DNA of 64,000 bases, from the NCBI RefSeq assembly GCF_016026235.1, contig NZ_CP065613.1; one strand, 5' to 3'. Below, in pieces: positions 5,629 to 33,817 of this stretch. The notes below the pieces were generated by a model. The model was given only the letters and a program-made list of their open reading frames with translations, was not told where the DNA came from and ran no database searches. The position numbers and the translations under genes were made by a program. How positions within the stretch are numbered: position 1 is the first letter of the stretch; each line of letters begins with the position of its first letter. The stretch comes from Escherichia coli. GTDB taxonomy: Bacteria > Pseudomonadota > Gammaproteobacteria > Enterobacterales > Enterobacteriaceae.

Positions 5629-7008
5629 TTATTTATTGGCTACTGCATCAATACTTAAACTTTCAACGGAGACACCTTTGGTTTCGATTCCAATGGTGGC
5701 GATAGCAATTGCGACAATAATTGAAACCGCCCCCAGAAGAATAAAGACTCCCGTAACGCCATAACTACTGAGCAGCACTGCAACGGCATAAGGTGCGGCA
5801 ATACCACTGATTCGCCCTACCGCATTCGCCAGACCGGAGCCACGGAGTTTGGCCTCTGTCGGCCAGATCTCAGGGACATACACTGCCGAGGCATAGCAAA
5901 CGTACATATAGACGAAAGTAATCAGGAAGAAACCAATCAACGTTATGAGCAACATGCTGGTTTGCAGTGAATAGATATATCCGAGCACCGCAATCAGGAT
6001 TAATAGCCCCACACCCATTGTTTTACGCGGAATTTTATCCATCACCAGCATGGCAATAAAAATGCCAAATGGCGCGCCAAACATACTCATGGTATTTAAA
6101 ACAATCGAGTCTTTTAAATTAATCCCCTGGGTCATGAATATCGTTGGCAACCAGTTAATTAGTGTGTACTGCACAACGTTCATGGCAATCAGCACACAAG
6201 AGCCTAATATCACGCGTTTCAGTAATACTCCTGTCAGTAAGGCTGAATACGGCACCGCTTGTGGCGTTTTACCGTCATCAGCAATAACCACGGGCGGCAA
6301 AGGTTTGCCCGTCTGGTGTATGACGCCTTCTTCTATACTCCGCATGACTTTCTCGGCTTCCTGATACCGTCCGCGCGATTCCAGCCAGCGCGGGGATTCA
6401 GGAAAGTAGCGCCAGGCCAGCGCCGTAGCGATAAGCGACAATATTGCAGGGATAAGCAGTTGTACCCGCCAGTTCCACTCTGCACTAATCAGCGGCGTGA
6501 GTCCCATCGCTATCAATGAACAGAGCGGATATGACCAGTTGCCAATAAAGGAAACCCGACTTGACCACGTTCCACGATTTCTACCGGGCATATATTCGGT
6601 GAAACCAGCAAACAGCGTAACCAGTAAAGCTCCCAGCCCAACTCCCATCACAAAACGGCAGGCAATAAGGAAATCCATATTCGGTGAGAAAGCACCGACA
6701 ACCATCGAGGCAATATGAATGGCCTCATAGAGGATGAACGCATTTCTGCGACCGGTTTTGTCGCCAATGATGCCGCCCACCAGCGCACCGAGAAACATTC
6801 CGGCGGTCGTGATTGCTGAGAATGTGGCTGTGGTGGAATTATCTGTCCAGCCCAACGCTTTCAGCTGCGCGAGGATCAAGCCACCAACGGCATTACTCCA
6901 GCAGACAAGCAAGCCAAACGCGACGATGGCAAACATTGACGAATGCCAGCGGCAATCCGGTAAGCGATCCAGCCGTGCACCACAATGCGGTTTTGTTATC
7001 TGTTCCAT
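5629..7008 (-). CDS. ydjK: MFS sugar transporter
   Basis: 459-aa polytopic membrane ORF; synteny. Confidence 0.9.
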   Translation of the reverse strand: MEQITKPHCGARLDRLPDCRWHSSMFAIVAFGLLVCWSNAVGGLILAQLKALGWTDNSTTATFSAITTAGMFLGALVGGIIGDKTGRRNAFILYEAIHIASMVVGAFSPNMDFLIACRFVMGVGLGALLVTLFAGFTEYMPGRNRGTWSSRVSFIGNWSYPLCSLIAMGLTPLISAEWNWRVQLLIPAILSLIATALAWRYFPESPRWLESRGRYQEAEKVMRSIEEGVIHQTGKPLPPVVIADDGKTPQAVPYSALLTGVLLKRVILGSCVLIAMNVVQYTLINWLPTIFMTQGINLKDSIVLNTMSMFGAPFGIFIAMLVMDKIPRKTMGVGLLILIAVLGYIYSLQTSMLLITLIGFFLITFVYMYVCYASAVYVPEIWPTEAKLRGSGLANAVGRISGIAAPYAVAVLLSSYGVTGVFILLGAVSIIVAIAIATIGIETKGVSVESLSIDAVANK

Positions 7009-7034
7009 GCGATAACGTTCCTTCAGGAAAGTTG

Positions 7035-8111
7035 TTATTCATCAAAGTCGTAAGTCATGATCACTTTGATTGCGGTTTTATCGACCATCGCATCAAACCC
7101 TTCGCGCCATTGCGACAGGCCGATACGATGCGTGATCATCGGTTTGACTTTGATAGCGCCGCTGACTAATAGCCTGATAGCGTTACGCCATGAGGTGGAG
7201 TCATAGGCCATATGCCCAATGATGCTTTTGTTCCAGGCGGTAATGTCATTAATCGAGAAATCAAGAGGTTTGAAGCCCATTCCAACGCGTACCACTTCCC
7301 CGTTCGGGCGGAGCATTTCGATGGCTTGTTTCAGTGCGATATTGGCACCGGAGCATTCAATCACCAGTCCCAGATTGTCTTTTCCACAAATTTGCTGGCA
7401 GCGCGCCACCACATCTTCGGTAGAACCATTTACTACTGCCGTCGCACCCAGTTCTTTTGCAACCGGGAAGCGGACCGCCACATCTTCTTGCAGACCAACG
7501 ACGACGATATTTACCGCCCCCATAATTCGCGCCATTTGTACGGAGAACAGCCCGAGTGGGCCAGTGCCGATGACGACCACATCCTGACCAGGAAGGAATT
7601 TCGATTGCTGCGCGATGGATTTGTAGGCATTACAGATAGGGTCAAGTACGGCTGCGTCCTCATAATCAACACCATCAGGGATTTCCCACAACGCATGACG
7701 ATGAATTTTGAGAATTTCACCAGGAACCAGACAATATTTGGAAAAACCACCGCCCCAGGTATTATTATCCAGACCAAGGTTTACTTTTTCTGTACAACAC
7801 AGAAAATCACCTTGTTCACAGGCCGGACAAACGCCGCAAACGTGACCGCTGTTATCCGATACGACGCGTTGCCCCACTTTCCAGTCTTTGACTTTTTCAC
7901 CAACCTGCGCAATACAACCTGCGAACTCATGGCCGCGGATAGAGTTAAACTCATCAGAACCGCTATCGACATTGTAGTGCTTCATGTCTGCGCCGCAGAT
8001 TGCCGCGGCTTTAATTTCAATCACTACATCTTCCGGGCCACACATGGGTTGTGGGACATCAATCATCTTGTAGCCGCCAAAGGCTTTGCCAAACCGAGCC
8101 AGTGCTTTCAT
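7035..8111 (-). CDS. ydjL: Zn-dependent dehydrogenase
   Basis: 358-aa MDR-family ORF; first gene of the ydjLKJIHG cluster. Confidence 0.9.
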   Translation of the reverse strand: MKALARFGKAFGGYKMIDVPQPMCGPEDVVIEIKAAAICGADMKHYNVDSGSDEFNSIRGHEFAGCIAQVGEKVKDWKVGQRVVSDNSGHVCGVCPACEQGDFLCCTEKVNLGLDNNTWGGGFSKYCLVPGEILKIHRHALWEIPDGVDYEDAAVLDPICNAYKSIAQQSKFLPGQDVVVIGTGPLGLFSVQMARIMGAVNIVVVGLQEDVAVRFPVAKELGATAVVNGSTEDVVARCQQICGKDNLGLVIECSGANIALKQAIEMLRPNGEVVRVGMGFKPLDFSINDITAWNKSIIGHMAYDSTSWRNAIRLLVSGAIKVKPMITHRIGLSQWREGFDAMVDKTAIKVIMTYDFDE

Positions 8112-8189
8112 TGCGTCATCCTCTGTGTTTTGTTTTGCTTAGATGGTCATCATACTTACCCACATGATTTTTGAGGTCAACATTAAATC

Positions 8190-8221
8190 TGTAAAACACA
8201 GATAATGATCTGCGTTTTACA
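8190..8221. promoter_or_regulatory. 32-bp near-perfect palindrome upstream of ydjL (candidate operator)
   Basis: TGTAAAACACAGATAATGATCTGCGTTTTACA, 28 of 32 positions dyad-symmetric, about 80 bp upstream of the ydjL start. Confidence 0.3.
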
Positions 8222-8480
8222 ACTCAGATCACAATTACGCAGAAAATGGCTGGTTCTGTTACAGGTTGATGGAAGGCTGAACGCAAAAGGAGCAAATTTG
8301 AGAGGGATTACCGGCCAAATAGGTCTGAGACTTAAGTTCAGGAGAAGTCATTCAAGCGTGAACGCGACGGCAAGAGACCGGGCTGGGGCTTTGCCTGGTC
8401 GTGACGAGATAATTGAGATGAGTCGTGGGGTTATTGTTGGCTATCCCCTTTATAACCGCGGCAAAAAGGGGACAAACCAC

Positions 8481-27667: not shown

Positions 27668-28591
27668 TCAGGCATGTTCCAGTGAAAAATTCGGGTAGTG
27701 CTCGGCAAAATACTGGCGTAAAAATTCTACCGTTATCCGCACTTTCGCTGACGTCGCCAGCCTTGAAACATAAACGGCCCAGACGTTCGCTGGCTGGTAA
27801 TATTCCGGTAGCACTTGCACTAAATGACCACTGGCAATGTTTTCGCTAACATCCCACCAGGAACGCAGAGCAATCCCCTGCCCATCGAGACACCACTGAT
27901 GGACAATTTCTCCATGATTAGACGACAGTGGGCCGGTGACTTTAATCGCATGGTGGCCTTCTTTATTGCGTAATTGCCAGACACCAAAAGGATGATCGCG
28001 CTCTTTAATGACCAGGCACGGCAATGCAGAAAGATCGGTTAAATGTTTCGGCGCGCCATGTTGCGCAATAAATTCCGGCGACGCGCAGAGAATGCGGTAA
28101 TTGGTCGCCAGTTTGCGGGCGATTAAATTAGGGGCAATGTCATCGCCAATGCGAATATCGAGATCGACACCTTCATTGACCAAATCGACCAGCCGGTCTT
28201 CCACATCAAAACGTAATTCCAGTTGCGGATACGCCTTCGCCAGCGCTGATAACGCCGGAGCCACCACCTGTCGTCCAAAACCAAAGCTGCTGATAATACG
28301 CAGCATCCCCTGTGGCACCTGACGCACGTCAGAAAGTTCGTCCATCATCTGACCGACATCCTGCAAAATCCGCTGCGCCCATTCATAAATCCGCTCTCCT
28401 TCTTCGGTAATGGTGACGCGGCGGGTGGTGCGGTGTAACAACACCACGTTTAGCGTTTGCTCCAGCAAGGCGATGCGCTTGCTGACGAACGCCGGTGAAA
28501 CGCCCAGTTCTTCCGCCACGGCGGCAAAACCAGCCCGGCGAGCCACCAGCATAAAGACGCGCAAATCATTCAGCAGCGGTAAATTATTCAT
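27668..28591 (-). CDS. dmlR: LysR-family regulator DmlR
   Basis: Start placed at MNNLPLLNDLRVF (307 aa); divergent from dmlA. Confidence 0.85.
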   Translation of the reverse strand: MNNLPLLNDLRVFMLVARRAGFAAVAEELGVSPAFVSKRIALLEQTLNVVLLHRTTRRVTITEEGERIYEWAQRILQDVGQMMDELSDVRQVPQGMLRIISSFGFGRQVVAPALSALAKAYPQLELRFDVEDRLVDLVNEGVDLDIRIGDDIAPNLIARKLATNYRILCASPEFIAQHGAPKHLTDLSALPCLVIKERDHPFGVWQLRNKEGHHAIKVTGPLSSNHGEIVHQWCLDGQGIALRSWWDVSENIASGHLVQVLPEYYQPANVWAVYVSRLATSAKVRITVEFLRQYFAEHYPNFSLEHA

Positions 28592-28693
28592 GATTCGTGT
28601 TTTATGTTTCACCAGTTACGGGGATTAATTCCTTTTCAGTCAATTATAGGATGGTGATGTTGTCAATTTTGATGGTCAGGAAGTGAGAACCCA

Positions 28694-29779
28694 ATGATGA
28701 AAACGATGCGTATTGCTGCGATCCCGGGAGACGGGATTGGCAAAGAAGTCCTTCCTGAAGGGATTCGCGTGTTACAGGCTGCCGCTGAGCGCTGGGGCTT
28801 CGCCTTGAGTTTTGAGCAAATGGAGTGGGCGAGCTGCGAGTATTACAGCCATCACGGTAAAATGATGCCGGACGACTGGCATGAGCAACTTAGCCGTTTC
28901 GACGCCATCTATTTTGGTGCCGTCGGCTGGCCGGACACCGTTCCGGACCATATTTCGTTGTGGGGTTCGCTGCTGAAATTTCGTCGTGAATTCGACCAGT
29001 ACGTCAACCTGCGCCCGGTTCGTCTCTTTCCTGGCGTTCCCTGCCCGCTGGCGGGAAAACAGCCTGGCGACATCGATTTTTACGTGGTCAGGGAAAACAC
29101 CGAAGGCGAATATTCCTCGCTCGGCGGTAGAGTGAATGAAGGTACAGAGCATGAAGTCGTCATTCAGGAATCGGTATTTACGCGTCGTGGTGTCGATCGC
29201 ATTTTGCGTTATGCCTTCGAACTTGCGCAAAGCCGCCCACGTAAGACGCTAACTTCTGCCACTAAATCAAACGGTTTAGCCATCAGCATGCCGTACTGGG
29301 ATGAGCGAGTGGAAGCAATGGCCGAGAATTACCCGGAGATCCGCTGGGACAAGCAGCATATTGATATTCTCTGCGCGCGTTTTGTGATGCAGCCGGAACG
29401 CTTCGATGTGGTGGTGGCCTCCAATTTGTTTGGCGATATCCTTTCCGATCTTGGCCCAGCCTGCACCGGCACCATTGGCATTGCCCCATCCGCCAACCTG
29501 AATCCGGAACGCACTTTCCCGTCGCTCTTCGAGCCTGTCCACGGTTCCGCGCCGGATATCTACGGGAAAAATATTGCTAACCCTATCGCCACAATTTGGG
29601 CCGGTGCAATGATGCTCGATTTTCTCGGCAATGGTGATGAGCGTTTCCAGCAAGCGCATAACGGTATTCTGGCAGCGATTGAAGAAGTGATTGCTCACGG
29701 GCCGAAAACACCGGATATGGAAGGCAGTGCCACCACGCCACAGGTTGCCGACGCGATTTGCAAAATTATTTTGCGTTAA
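28694..29779 (+). CDS. dmlA: D-malate / tartrate dehydrogenase (decarboxylating)
   Basis: 361-aa isocitrate/isopropylmalate dehydrogenase-family ORF. Confidence 0.9.
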   Translation: MMKTMRIAAIPGDGIGKEVLPEGIRVLQAAAERWGFALSFEQMEWASCEYYSHHGKMMPDDWHEQLSRFDAIYFGAVGWPDTVPDHISLWGSLLKFRREFDQYVNLRPVRLFPGVPCPLAGKQPGDIDFYVVRENTEGEYSSLGGRVNEGTEHEVVIQESVFTRRGVDRILRYAFELAQSRPRKTLTSATKSNGLAISMPYWDERVEAMAENYPEIRWDKQHIDILCARFVMQPERFDVVVASNLFGDILSDLGPACTGTIGIAPSANLNPERTFPSLFEPVHGSAPDIYGKNIANPIATIWAGAMMLDFLGNGDERFQQAHNGILAAIEEVIAHGPKTPDMEGSATTPQVADAICKIILR

Positions 29780-29799
29780 GGTCAAACCAGTTTATTTGA

Positions 29800-29826
29800 A
29801 CCGCGTCACTGACGCGGTTTTTTTAT
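29800..29826 (+). terminator. rho-independent terminator of dmlA
   Basis: Hairpin ACCGCGTCACTGACGCGGT followed by T8. Confidence 0.8.
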
Positions 29827-30029
29827 TCGTTCTTTGCAGTTAATAACCTGCGTCATTTCACCTTTTATTGTTTCCGTTTCGTGTTTTATGGCTTTCCGTA
29901 TTCTTAATTGTTTAATTTATGTAACATGCAAATAATCAATTTGTTAAACACAACATACAACTCATTACCCTGCAAATAATTACAACTGGCAAAAGCCAGA
30001 GACGGGCTTTTATGCCCAGGAGATGACTC

Positions 30030-31640
30030 ATGATGAGCAATGTTAAGAAAAAAGATGTGCCGCTGATAAGCATCAGCCTGGTGGCCATTCTTTTCATCGC
30101 AGCTGCATTAAGCCTTTTCCCACAACAATCGGCCGACGCGGCCAACGCAATATACACTTTTGTTACGCGTACGTTAGGTTCCGCCGTACAGGTATTGGTT
30201 TTGCTGGCAATGGGACTGGTGATTTATTTAGCCACCAGTAAATACGGCAATATTCGTCTTGGCGAAGGAAAACCGGAATACAGCACGCTCTCCTGGCTGT
30301 TTATGTTTATTTGTGCCGGTTTAGGTTCTTCTACGCTTTATTGGGGGGTTGCTGAATGGGCCTATTATTATCAAACACCTGGATTAAATATCGCACCGCG
30401 TTCACAACAGGCACTCGAATTTAGCGTTCCCTACTCTTTCTTCCACTGGGGCATCAGCGCCTGGGCAACTTATACGCTGGCCTCATTAATCATGGCTTAT
30501 CACTTTCATGTGCGGAAAAACAAAGGTCTGAGCCTTTCCGGCATTATTGCTGCTATTACCGGCGTTCGCCCGCAAGGCCCATGGGGAAAACTGGTCGATT
30601 TGATGTTCCTGATCGCCACTGTCGGCGCACTGACCATTTCCCTTGTTGTTACCGCAGCAACCTTTACCCGTGGGCTTTCCGCGCTGACCGGTTTACCCGA
30701 TAACTTCACCGTGCAGGCATTTGTGATCCTGCTTTCCGGCGGCATTTTTTGCCTAAGCTCGTGGATTGGTATCAACAACGGTTTGCAACGTCTGAGCAAA
30801 ATGGTTGGCTGGGGCGCGTTCCTGCTGCCATTACTGGTGCTGATTGTCGGCCCAACCGAATTTATTACCAACAGCATCATCAATGCCATCGGCCTGACCA
30901 CGCAAAACTTCCTGCAAATGAGCTTATTCACCGATCCGCTTGGCGATGGTTCATTTACCCGCAACTGGACCGTTTTCTACTGGCTGTGGTGGATCTCATA
31001 CACCCCTGGCGTAGCAATGTTTGTCACCCGCGTTTCCCGCGGTCGTAAGATTAAAGAAGTTATCTGGGGACTGATCCTCGGCAGCACCGTCGGTTGCTGG
31101 TTCTTCTTTGGCGTAATGGAAAGCTATGCCATTCATCAGTTTATCAATGGCGTAATCAACGTCCCACAGGTGCTGGAAACACTGGGCGGCGAAACAGCTG
31201 TGCAGCAAGTTCTGATGTCGTTGCCAGCCGGTAAATTGTTCCTCGCCGCATACCTGGGTGTGATGATTATTTTCCTTGCCTCGCATATGGATGCGGTGGC
31301 CTACACCATGGCTGCGACCAGTACGCGTAATCTCCAGGAAGGTGACGATCCTGACCGTGGGCTGCGTCTTTTCTGGTGCGTGGTGATCACTCTGATCCCG
31401 CTTTCCATCTTGTTTACCGGTGCTTCGCTGGAAACGATGAAAACCACCGTCGTGCTCACAGCCCTTCCCTTCCTCGTCATTTTACTGGTGAAAGTCGGCG
31501 GATTTATTCGCTGGCTGAAACAGGATTACGCCGACATTCCGGCTCATCAAGTTGAACATTATCTCCCGCAGACACCGGTTGAAGCCCTGGAAAAAACACC
31601 AGTGCTCCCTGCGGGAACCGTATTCAAAGGCGACAACTGA
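30030..31640 (+). CDS. yeaV: BCCT-family transporter YeaV
   Basis: 536-aa ORF from an ATG with strong AGGAG at 7-nt spacing; the K-12 annotation as I recall it (481 aa) would correspond to an internal TTG at 30195. Confidence 0.8.
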
Positions 31641-31671: not shown

Positions 31672-32796
31672 ATGAGCAATCTGAGCCCTGACTTTGTACT
31701 ACCCGAAAATTTTTGCGCTAACCCGCAAGAGGCGTGGACCATTCCTGCCCGTTTTTATACCGATCAGAACGCGTTTGAACACGAAAAAGAGAACGTCTTC
31801 GCCAAAAGCTGGATTTGCGTCGCTCACAGCAGCGAACTGGCGAATGCCAATGATTATGTGACGCGTGAGATCATTGGCGAAAGCATCGTGCTGGTACGCG
31901 GTCGTGATAAGGTTTTGCGCGCGTTCTATAACGTGTGTCCGCACCGTGGTCATCAGTTGTTGAGCGGTGAAGGAAAAGCAAAAAATGTGATTACCTGCCC
32001 GTATCACGCATGGGCATTCAAACTCGATGGCAATCTGGCCCATGCACGTAACTGCGAAAACGTCGCCAATTTCGATAGCGACAAAGCGCAACTGGTTCCG
32101 GTGCGTCTGGAAAAATATGCCGGATTCGTCTTCATCAACATGGACCCCAACGCCACCAGCGTAGAAGATCAGTTACCCGGTCTGGGCGCGAAAGTGCTGG
32201 AAGCCTGCCCGGAAGTCCACGATCTGAAACTGGCGGCCCGCTTTACCACCCGCACGCCTGCCAACTGGAAGAACATTGTCGATAACTATCTCGAGTGCTA
32301 TCACTGTGGTCCGGCGCATCCAGGTTTCTCCGACTCCGTACAGGTTGATCGTTACTGGCACACCATGCACGGTAACTGGACGCTGCAATACGGTTTCGCC
32401 AAACCGTCCGAACAGTCGTTTAAATTTGAAGAGGGTACGGATGCGGCATTCCACGGTTTCTGGCTGTGGCCGTGCACGATGCTGAACGTCACCCCGATCA
32501 AAGGGATGATGACGGTCATTTATGAATTCCCGGTGGATTCTGAAACTACCCTGCAAAACTACGATATTTACTTCACCAATGAAGAGTTAACCGACGAGCA
32601 AAAATCGCTGATTGAGTGGTATCGCGATGTGTTCCGTCCGGAAGATTTACGTCTGGTTGAAAGCGTACAGAAAGGGCTGAAATCGCGTGGCTATCGTGGT
32701 CAGGGGCGCATCATGGCCGACAGTAGCGGTAGTGGCATTTCCGAACATGGTATCGCCCATTTCCATAATCTGCTGGCGCAGGTGTTTAAGGACTAA
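31672..32796 (+). CDS. yeaW: Rieske-type carnitine monooxygenase oxygenase subunit
   Basis: Start placed at MSNLSPDF (374 aa); Rieske motif CPHRGH...CPYHAW. Confidence 0.9.
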   Translation: MSNLSPDFVLPENFCANPQEAWTIPARFYTDQNAFEHEKENVFAKSWICVAHSSELANANDYVTREIIGESIVLVRGRDKVLRAFYNVCPHRGHQLLSGEGKAKNVITCPYHAWAFKLDGNLAHARNCENVANFDSDKAQLVPVRLEKYAGFVFINMDPNATSVEDQLPGLGAKVLEACPEVHDLKLAARFTTRTPANWKNIVDNYLECYHCGPAHPGFSDSVQVDRYWHTMHGNWTLQYGFAKPSEQSFKFEEGTDAAFHGFWLWPCTMLNVTPIKGMMTVIYEFPVDSETTLQNYDIYFTNEELTDEQKSLIEWYRDVFRPEDLRLVESVQKGLKSRGYRGQGRIMADSSGSGISEHGIAHFHNLLAQVFKD

Positions 32797-32851
32797 TGAC
32801 ATCGGCGGCGGTATTTTCCGCCGCTGGGCTGATTTTTGATGGAGTACAGCA

Positions 32852-33817
32852 ATGTCAGACTATCAAATGTTTGAAGTACAGGTGAGTCAGGTGGAACCGC
32901 TTACCGAACAGGTGAAACGCTTCACGCTGGTGGCAACCGATGGCAAACCGCTGCCTGCGTTCACCGGAGGAAGTCACATCATTGTGCAGATGAGCGATGG
33001 TGATAACCAGTACAGCAATGCGTATTCACTACTGAGTTCGCCGCATGACACCTCTTGTTATCAGATTGCCGTTCGGCTGGAGGAAAACTCGCGCGGCGGT
33101 TCCCGCTTTTTGCATCAGCAGGTAAAAGTGGGCGATCGGTTAACGATTTCAACGCCTAATAACCTGTTTGCGCTAATTCCCTCAGCCAGAAAGCATCTGT
33201 TTATCGCGGGCGGTATTGGTATCACCCCTTTCCTGTCGCACATGGCAGAGCTGCAACACAGCGACGTCGACTGGCAGCTACATTACTGCTCGCGAAATCC
33301 AGAAAGTTGCGCATTTCGTGATGAGCTAGTCCAGCATCCGCAGGCTGAGAAAGTCCATTTGCATCATTCATCAACCGGAACACGACTGGAATTAGCGCGA
33401 TTATTGGCGGATATCGAACCTGGCACACACGTTTATACCTGTGGCCCCGAGGCGCTAATTGAAGCGGTAAGAAGTGAAGCTGCGCGTCTGGACATCGCCG
33501 CCGATACGCTGCACTTTGAGCAATTTGCTATCGAAGACAAAACCGGCGATGCATTTACCCTGGTGCTTGCCCGTTCCGGAAAAGAGTTTGTGGTGCCGGA
33601 AGAGATGACTATTTTGCAGGTTATTGAAAATAATAAAGCCGCGAAAGTGGAATGTTTATGTCGTGAAGGGGTATGCGGAACCTGCGAAACAGCAATACTG
33701 GAAGGTGAAGCTGACCATCGGGATCAATATTTTAGCGATGAAGAGCGTGCCAGCCAGCAAAGTATGTTGATCTGTTGTTCGCGTGCGAAGGGTAAACGCC
33801 TGGTGTTGGATTTGTAG
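32852..33817 (+). CDS. yeaX: carnitine monooxygenase reductase subunit (FMN / 2Fe-2S)
   Basis: 321-aa ORF with C-terminal plant-type ferredoxin cysteines. Confidence 0.9.
   Translation: MSDYQMFEVQVSQVEPLTEQVKRFTLVATDGKPLPAFTGGSHIIVQMSDGDNQYSNAYSLLSSPHDTSCYQIAVRLEENSRGGSRFLHQQVKVGDRLTISTPNNLFALIPSARKHLFIAGGIGITPFLSHMAELQHSDVDWQLHYCSRNPESCAFRDELVQHPQAEKVHLHHSSTGTRLELARLLADIEPGTHVYTCGPEALIEAVRSEAARLDIAADTLHFEQFAIEDKTGDAFTLVLARSGKEFVVPEEMTILQVIENNKAAKVECLCREGVCGTCETAILEGEADHRDQYFSDEERASQQSMLICCSRAKGKRLVLDL

Follow-up and report, generated by a model that had tools for sequence, protein, structure and literature searches.

yeaV of Escherichia coli probably begins 55 codons upstream of the K-12-style start, as an intact allele encoding a 536-residue BCCT-family transporter

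Where does yeaV begin? In the E. coli K-12 strain MG1655 (NC_000913.3) the gene (b1801, NP_416315.1) is annotated at 1446 bp, encoding 481 amino acids from a TTG codon at position 689 of the MG1655 locus. In the stretch of E. coli DNA analysed here (64,000 nucleotides of contig NZ_CP065613.1, termed the window) the frame opens earlier, at the first of two adjoining ATG codons, and the initial annotation placed the start there, 55 codons upstream of the K-12-style start. We ask whether these codons belong to the protein, and what became of them in K-12. We assign a probability of about 90% to the reading that the window holds an intact ancestral allele of yeaV for a 536-aa transporter, whose start precedes the K-12 one by 55 codons. 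The features at issue are:

30030..31640, plus strand: yeaV CDS, BCCT-family transporter, 536 aa plus stop (open reading frame list, profile matches)
30018..30022, plus strand: Shine-Dalgarno AGGAG, with a 7-nt spacer (30023-29) before the first ATG
30030..30032, plus strand: yeaV start codon ATG, conserved Met1 (orthologue N-termini, RefSeq CDS start)
30033-30035, plus strand: second ATG, adjoining the first (read from the sequence)
30030..30194, plus strand: 55-codon 'extension' relative to the K-12 annotation (coding signature, invariant residues)
30195..30197, plus strand: TTG, in-frame codon 56, the annotated start in K-12 MG1655 (b1801; NC_000913.3 annotation)

The AGGAG that had been described at 7-nt spacing before ATG 30030 can be read directly in the sequence. 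Upstream of both ATGs the anti-Shine-Dalgarno duplex energy is -7.4 kcal/mol, while at TTG 30195 it is only -3.1 kcal/mol, compared with a background of -2.0 +/- 2.2 kcal/mol at positions within yeaV; the ATG thus has a real Shine-Dalgarno sequence and the TTG is not above background. The TTG is in frame and the length arithmetic agrees (536-55 = 481 codons), so that the 481-aa K-12 start does correspond, as proposed, to an internal TTG lacking a convincing Shine-Dalgarno.

The adjacent ATG at 30033 could instead initiate a 535-aa protein, with everything else as in our main reading, since it adjoins ATG 30030 and has the same Shine-Dalgarno at 10-nt spacing, with the same -7.4 kcal/mol. We consider this quite unlikely. 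A 7-nt spacing, as for ATG 30030, is nearer the usual optimum, the RefSeq CDS starts at 30030, and the aligned second codon is TTG in Klebsiella, TTG in Citrobacter and CAG in Serratia while the first is ATG in all, making Met1 and not the codon at 30033 the conserved initiator. ATG 30030 is therefore favoured here as the codon that would be used in vivo, judging from sequence comparison.

Homology extends well into the first 55 codons. The Pfam BCCT profile PF02028 (gathering cut-off 27 bits) scores 406 bits (E = 1.9e-121), a value that places the open reading frame far beyond chance, with residues 14-499 matching profile positions 3-485 of 485. The NCBIfam equivalog NF007412, with 536 positions and a curated cut-off of 647 bits, covers residues 1-536 end to end at 1033 bits. 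Alignments with PDB chains of DddT, CaiT, TmaT, BetT and BetP begin at query residues 9-33. Full-length orthologues of about 528-548 aa occur in more than 10 genera and share the N-terminus M-x-S-N-x-K-K-D-[VI]-x-L-I; we sampled Klebsiella, Citrobacter/Salmonella, Enterobacter lignolyticus, Leclercia, Shimwellia, Serratia, Yersinia and Xenorhabdus, and further Pseudomonas, Aeromonas, Cupriavidus, Achromobacter and Helicobacter. The orthologue proteins open with ML, MM, MQ or MF followed by SN-x-KKD, and no variation occurs at D9, L12, P31, A38 or T46 among 38 orthologues. The comparison of N-termini across BCCT-family homologues and orthologues in many genera that the initial annotation had suggested thus finds the extension present.

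The DNA of this region also evolves as coding sequence. Between E. coli and Klebsiella, codons 1-55 differ at 12, 6 and 23 sites in codon positions 1, 2 and 3, a third-position bias that is a coding signature. The Shine-Dalgarno and ATG context caggagat-N5-ATG is kept, with the motif caggagat itself in Klebsiella and variants in Citrobacter and Serratia. Amino-acid identity over codons 1-55 is 57-75% against three genera and 79-89% over the remainder of the protein; the lower value reflects weaker constraint, though this is usual for a peripheral helix.

What these residues build can be seen in an AlphaFold2 model based on the 38 orthologues (pLDDT 82, pTM 0.83), which places two helices at the N-terminus:

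30057..30116, plus strand: transmembrane helix 1, residues 10-29 (AlphaFold2 model, block pLDDT 80-87; hydropathy peak)
30120..30236, plus strand: helix 2, residues 31-69 (AlphaFold2 model)

The hydrophobic, helix-like stretch first noticed in the extension corresponds to residues 12-30, the top 19-residue Kyte-Doolittle window of the protein (mean 2.72). In the alignments with DddT and CaiT helix 1 falls on their N-terminal helix, and since the modelled helix 2 spans residues 31-69, the K-12-style TTG falls in the middle of it. Within residues 1-55, a short Lys-rich tail on the cytoplasmic side (MMSNVKKKD) would accordingly be followed by helix 1 and then by helix 2 up to about its midpoint. 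By the positive-inside rule the tail, with three Lys in residues 1-11, is predicted to be cytoplasmic, with helix 1 crossing outwards.

BCCT proteins have a LeuT-type core of ten helices, with two further helices at the N-terminus. This twelve-helix architecture is found in the YeaV model, in which helices 10-29 and 31-69 precede the core, and Foldseek aligns the model with CaiT, BetT, TmaT and BetP over 483-518 columns at query-normalised TM-scores of 0.80-0.85. The Trp-rich BCCT signature, which we take to be [GSDN]-W-T-[LIVM]-x-[FY]-W-x-W-W as in PROSITE, is present at residues 312-321. On this evidence YeaV belongs to the BCCT family of secondary transporters, and the 55 codons are a part of the protein integral to its fold, not an optional extension.

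Among solved relatives DddT (PDB 21FH and others) is the best by sequence (E = 3e-100). Its chain, residues 14-498, aligns to YeaV 16-498, so that helix 1 of YeaV aligns with that of DddT residue for residue; DddT comes from another organism and substrate context and is not a YeaV orthologue. The same BCCT fold is seen in CaiT (PDB 2WSX, 2WSW, 3HFX), which serves E. coli and Proteus mirabilis as L-carnitine/gamma-butyrobetaine antiporter, with TM-scores against the YeaV model of 0.80-0.85 (query-normalised) over 483-493 columns that include the N-terminal helices. The CaiT sequence alignment begins at YeaV residue 26-33, at an identity of only 27-28%, and the gene context, the cai operon, differs from that of yeaV. 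The NCBIfam CaiT equivalog NF002887 gives 346 bits, under its 541 cut-off; by its sequence YeaV is a CaiT paralogue and not CaiT.

It follows how little room is left for the idea that TTG 30195 is the true start in the window too, with the upstream 165 nt an untranslated leader open by chance. Its basis is the historical K-12 annotation only (NP_416315.1, 481 aa), and it would require a leader whose 55 codons match BCCT profiles and solved structures, carry residues invariant across 38 orthologues, evolve with third-position bias, and account for helix 1 and one half of helix 2 as modelled, all ahead of a start with no Shine-Dalgarno above background. In K-12, moreover, the upstream codons are missing through a deletion. 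The comparisons made here speak against it already, and we regard it as barely credible.

That deletion was seen on searching E. coli genomes with window positions 29780-30400, which returned two coverage classes, full and 64%. Alignment with MC4100 and with strain 504239 defines the difference:

29933..30157, no strand: segment of 225 bp, present in the window and deleted in K-12-type genomes (alignment with MC4100 and strain 504239)

The deleted 225 bp consist of 97 bp of upstream DNA, the Shine-Dalgarno, the ATG and 42.7 codons (about 43). MG1655 (NC_000913.3) carries a junction 56-mer identical to that of the MC4100-type deletion. Its YeaV (b1801) occupies the same locus, flanked by dmlA and yeaW/yeaX, and has the same sequence from window position 30158 onward, but lacks the 225 bp and has its annotated TTG start within helix 2. 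In K-12 a TAA 45 nt ahead of the TTG closes the reading frame on that side; in this remnant we found no ATG ahead of the residue equivalent to M61 and no candidate start with a Shine-Dalgarno above background.

The 64%-coverage class and the 225-bp deletion in the alignment lead us to reject a plain mis-annotation of the K-12 start. The difference between K-12 and the window is a real one between alleles, an intact gene and a 5'-truncated remnant, and not one of annotation alone. The earlier view of the 481-aa form is thereby amended: its length and TTG start stand, but it is not an alternative start on the same DNA, for K-12 physically lacks the upstream ATG. The K-12 start is uninformative on start choice in intact alleles because the upstream codons are deleted there. 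K-12 and its relatives lost 225 bp, and with them probable promoter-proximal DNA, the Shine-Dalgarno, the ATG and about 43 codons; annotators then settled on TTG, the earliest canonical start codon that the decapitated frame still offers. With helix 1, part of helix 2, the Shine-Dalgarno and upstream DNA gone, the remnant is probably non-functional or impaired. As to the mode of deletion, microhomology at the junction is 1 nt (boundary ambiguity 1 nt), and a repeat-mediated event was rejected: a 7-nt TTTGTTA repeat near both ends fails to predict the observed junction.

Polarity of the change could be questioned, taking the 225 bp as an insertion in the lineage of the window and not a deletion in K-12. 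An antisense open reading frame (29936..30157) nearly coincides with the segment and could superficially suggest a small inserted element. The segment, however, encodes an N-terminus common to other genera and to distant BCCT members, with conserved Shine-Dalgarno and ATG, and it gives a single match in each genome bar one or two, which is how a non-mobile sequence would behave; nor was any outgroup species seen that lacks the segment yet keeps a functional transporter. We give insertion almost no weight, and take the segment as ancestral because it encodes the N-terminus shared by other genera. The antisense frame itself (29936-30157, minus strand) has a GTG start and 73 aa and spans almost exactly the K-12-deleted segment; lying opposite conserved yeaV coding sequence, it is most likely a coincidence.

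Both alleles are common. In a collection of 5,426 complete E. coli genomes, the 225-bp segment is carried by 2,930 and the identical K-12 junction by 1,439; the locus is present at all in 4,372 of the 5,426, a number equal to those with yeaW, and the cluster is absent from about 1,054 of them. One and the same junction in 1,439 genomes would point to a single deletion event in one clade, probably phylogroup A to judge by the K-12, B-derived and UMNF18 strains. The whole yeaVWX cluster is missing in about a fifth of genomes, where neither the yeaV 5' region nor yeaW finds a match. Other lesions were observed in 3 of the 4,372 cluster-bearing genomes: in one (H40) the match is confined to query positions 507-621, and another (H70) has half of the 225-bp segment and no gene annotated.

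Public annotation already treats the two alleles separately. RefSeq/PGAP names the product of the intact allele 'BCCT family transporter YeaV', 536 aa (WP_000987525.1, strain 504239, O157:H7). Strain 504239 is 100% identical to window 29780-30400, and the window yeaV product is 100% identical to WP_000987525.1; this record and NF007412 (PRK09950) describe the same protein as the window gene, at an equal length of 536, with nothing different. PGAP calls the K-12-type allele a pseudogene, 'incomplete; missing N-terminus', in MC4100, re-sequenced MG1655 and UMNF18, while the curated K-12 reference record retains the 481-aa CDS. A yeaV start 55 codons upstream of the K-12-style start is therefore what homologues, Shine-Dalgarno and ATG conservation and WP_000987525.1 all agree on; since public annotation already contains the right start as well as the truncation, the finding holds but is an ordinary one. 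In the literature on yeaV we found no paper on the start codon or its experimental mapping, on ribosome-profiling evidence or on the K-12 truncation; the matches came from gene lists, from work with Keio/ASKA material or from unrelated words.

The deletion also reaches into the 200-bp spacer between dmlA and yeaV, half of which is deleted in K-12. A terminator-like element follows dmlA:

29798..29820, plus strand: terminator-like hairpin and T-run after dmlA (terminator scan)

This terminator after dmlA suggests that yeaV has its own promoter within 29830-30017; a scan of 29600-30400 for the sigma-70 promoter consensus found none. From genomic SELEX with CRP, yeaV is one of the predicted targets of this regulator in K-12 (PMC3105977), and no CRP consensus site is obvious by eye in the dmlA-yeaV spacer of the window. 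The AT-rich spacer holds two direct copies of the 10-bp sequence TGCAAATAAT, at 29927-29936 and 29971-29980. This repeat could be a regulator-binding element; the left K-12 deletion breakpoint (29932|29933) lies inside its first copy. Two inverted repeats are also seen: CTGGC-AAAA-GCCAG (29986-29999), just upstream of the Shine-Dalgarno, and GGGC-TTTTAT-GCCC (30004-30017), which abuts AGGAG and has the Klebsiella form GGGC-AATCAT-GCCC. Both are lost in the K-12 deletion; stems of 4-5 bp can occur by chance.

The neighbours of yeaV bear on its function. The gene order in the window is dmlR-dmlA-yeaV-yeaW-yeaX:

28694..29779, plus strand: dmlA, D-malate dehydrogenase, the upstream neighbour (RefSeq annotation of identical region, open reading frame list)
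31672..32796, plus strand: yeaW, oxygenase subunit of carnitine monooxygenase, 31 nt after yeaV (RefSeq annotation)
32852..33817, plus strand: yeaX, carnitine monooxygenase reductase subunit (RefSeq annotation, open reading frame list)

The order LysR regulator, Iso_dh (dmlA), BCCT, Rieske oxygenase, reductase is kept in the Klebsiella, Citrobacter/Salmonella and Serratia loci. For dmlR, the longest open reading frame (27668-28612, minus strand) begins at GTG 28612; the RefSeq start lies 21 nt downstream, at the equivalent of 28591 (924 bp).

Carnitine is the substrate to which this gene company points. In Acinetobacter baumannii the BCCT protein Aci01347 is needed for growth on carnitine and confers carnitine uptake in E. 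coli MKH13 (PMC6562126), and the Acinetobacter pathway runs from carnitine through malic semialdehyde and D-malate to pyruvate (PMC11353897). Aci01347 is likened to YeaV by gene company, as its operon holds CntA/CntB, D-malate dehydrogenase and a LysR regulator, as around yeaV (PMC6562126, PMC11353897). By this analogy YeaV may import carnitine or a related quaternary amine for YeaWX, as Aci01347 does. The clusters differ in one respect: that of Acinetobacter carries a malic semialdehyde dehydrogenase gene and that of E. coli does not. In Klebsiella, Citrobacter/Salmonella and Serratia the genes for the Rieske oxygenase and the reductase are likewise separated by one for an aldehyde dehydrogenase (Pfam Aldedh, about 482 aa), in the three loci at:

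6788-8236 (L004): Aldedh gene
6787-8238 (L005): Aldedh gene
6809-8257 (L006): Aldedh gene

The enzyme presumably serves the carnitine pathway as malic semialdehyde dehydrogenase. In E. coli only a 55-bp spacer (32797-32851) separates yeaW from yeaX, so that the cluster is without the malic semialdehyde dehydrogenase step.

Could the K-12 remnant still work? Although short of helix 1 and a third of helix 2, it might be made from the TTG or from a codon close by and still transport. This is hinted at by a metabolomics screen with the K-12 Keio knockout and the ASKA over-expression clone, which reported yeaV-dependent changes including carnitine depletion (PMC10971958); if those phenotypes are real, the remnant would keep some activity. 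We think this quite unlikely. Were the remnant active, the two N-terminal BCCT helices would be dispensable for function, and the deletion, carried by about a third of cluster-bearing E. coli, would change the regulation or the extent of carnitine uptake and would not be a gene loss.

The K-12 reference record (b1801, 481 aa) is a 5'-truncated remnant, and both the Keio knockout and the ASKA clone derive from K-12. Because the K-12 copy is truncated, functional studies of K-12 YeaV (e.g. PMC10971958, PMC3884056) never tested the intact transporter. The biology is modest, and the practical value lies in a caveat for K-12 yeaV reagents. Trimethylamine, which the yeaVWX cluster forms from carnitine, is a metabolite of medical interest. 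The capacity of a strain to form it could depend on whether that strain has the intact importer (2,930 genomes), carries the deletion allele (1,439) or is without the cluster (about 1,054).
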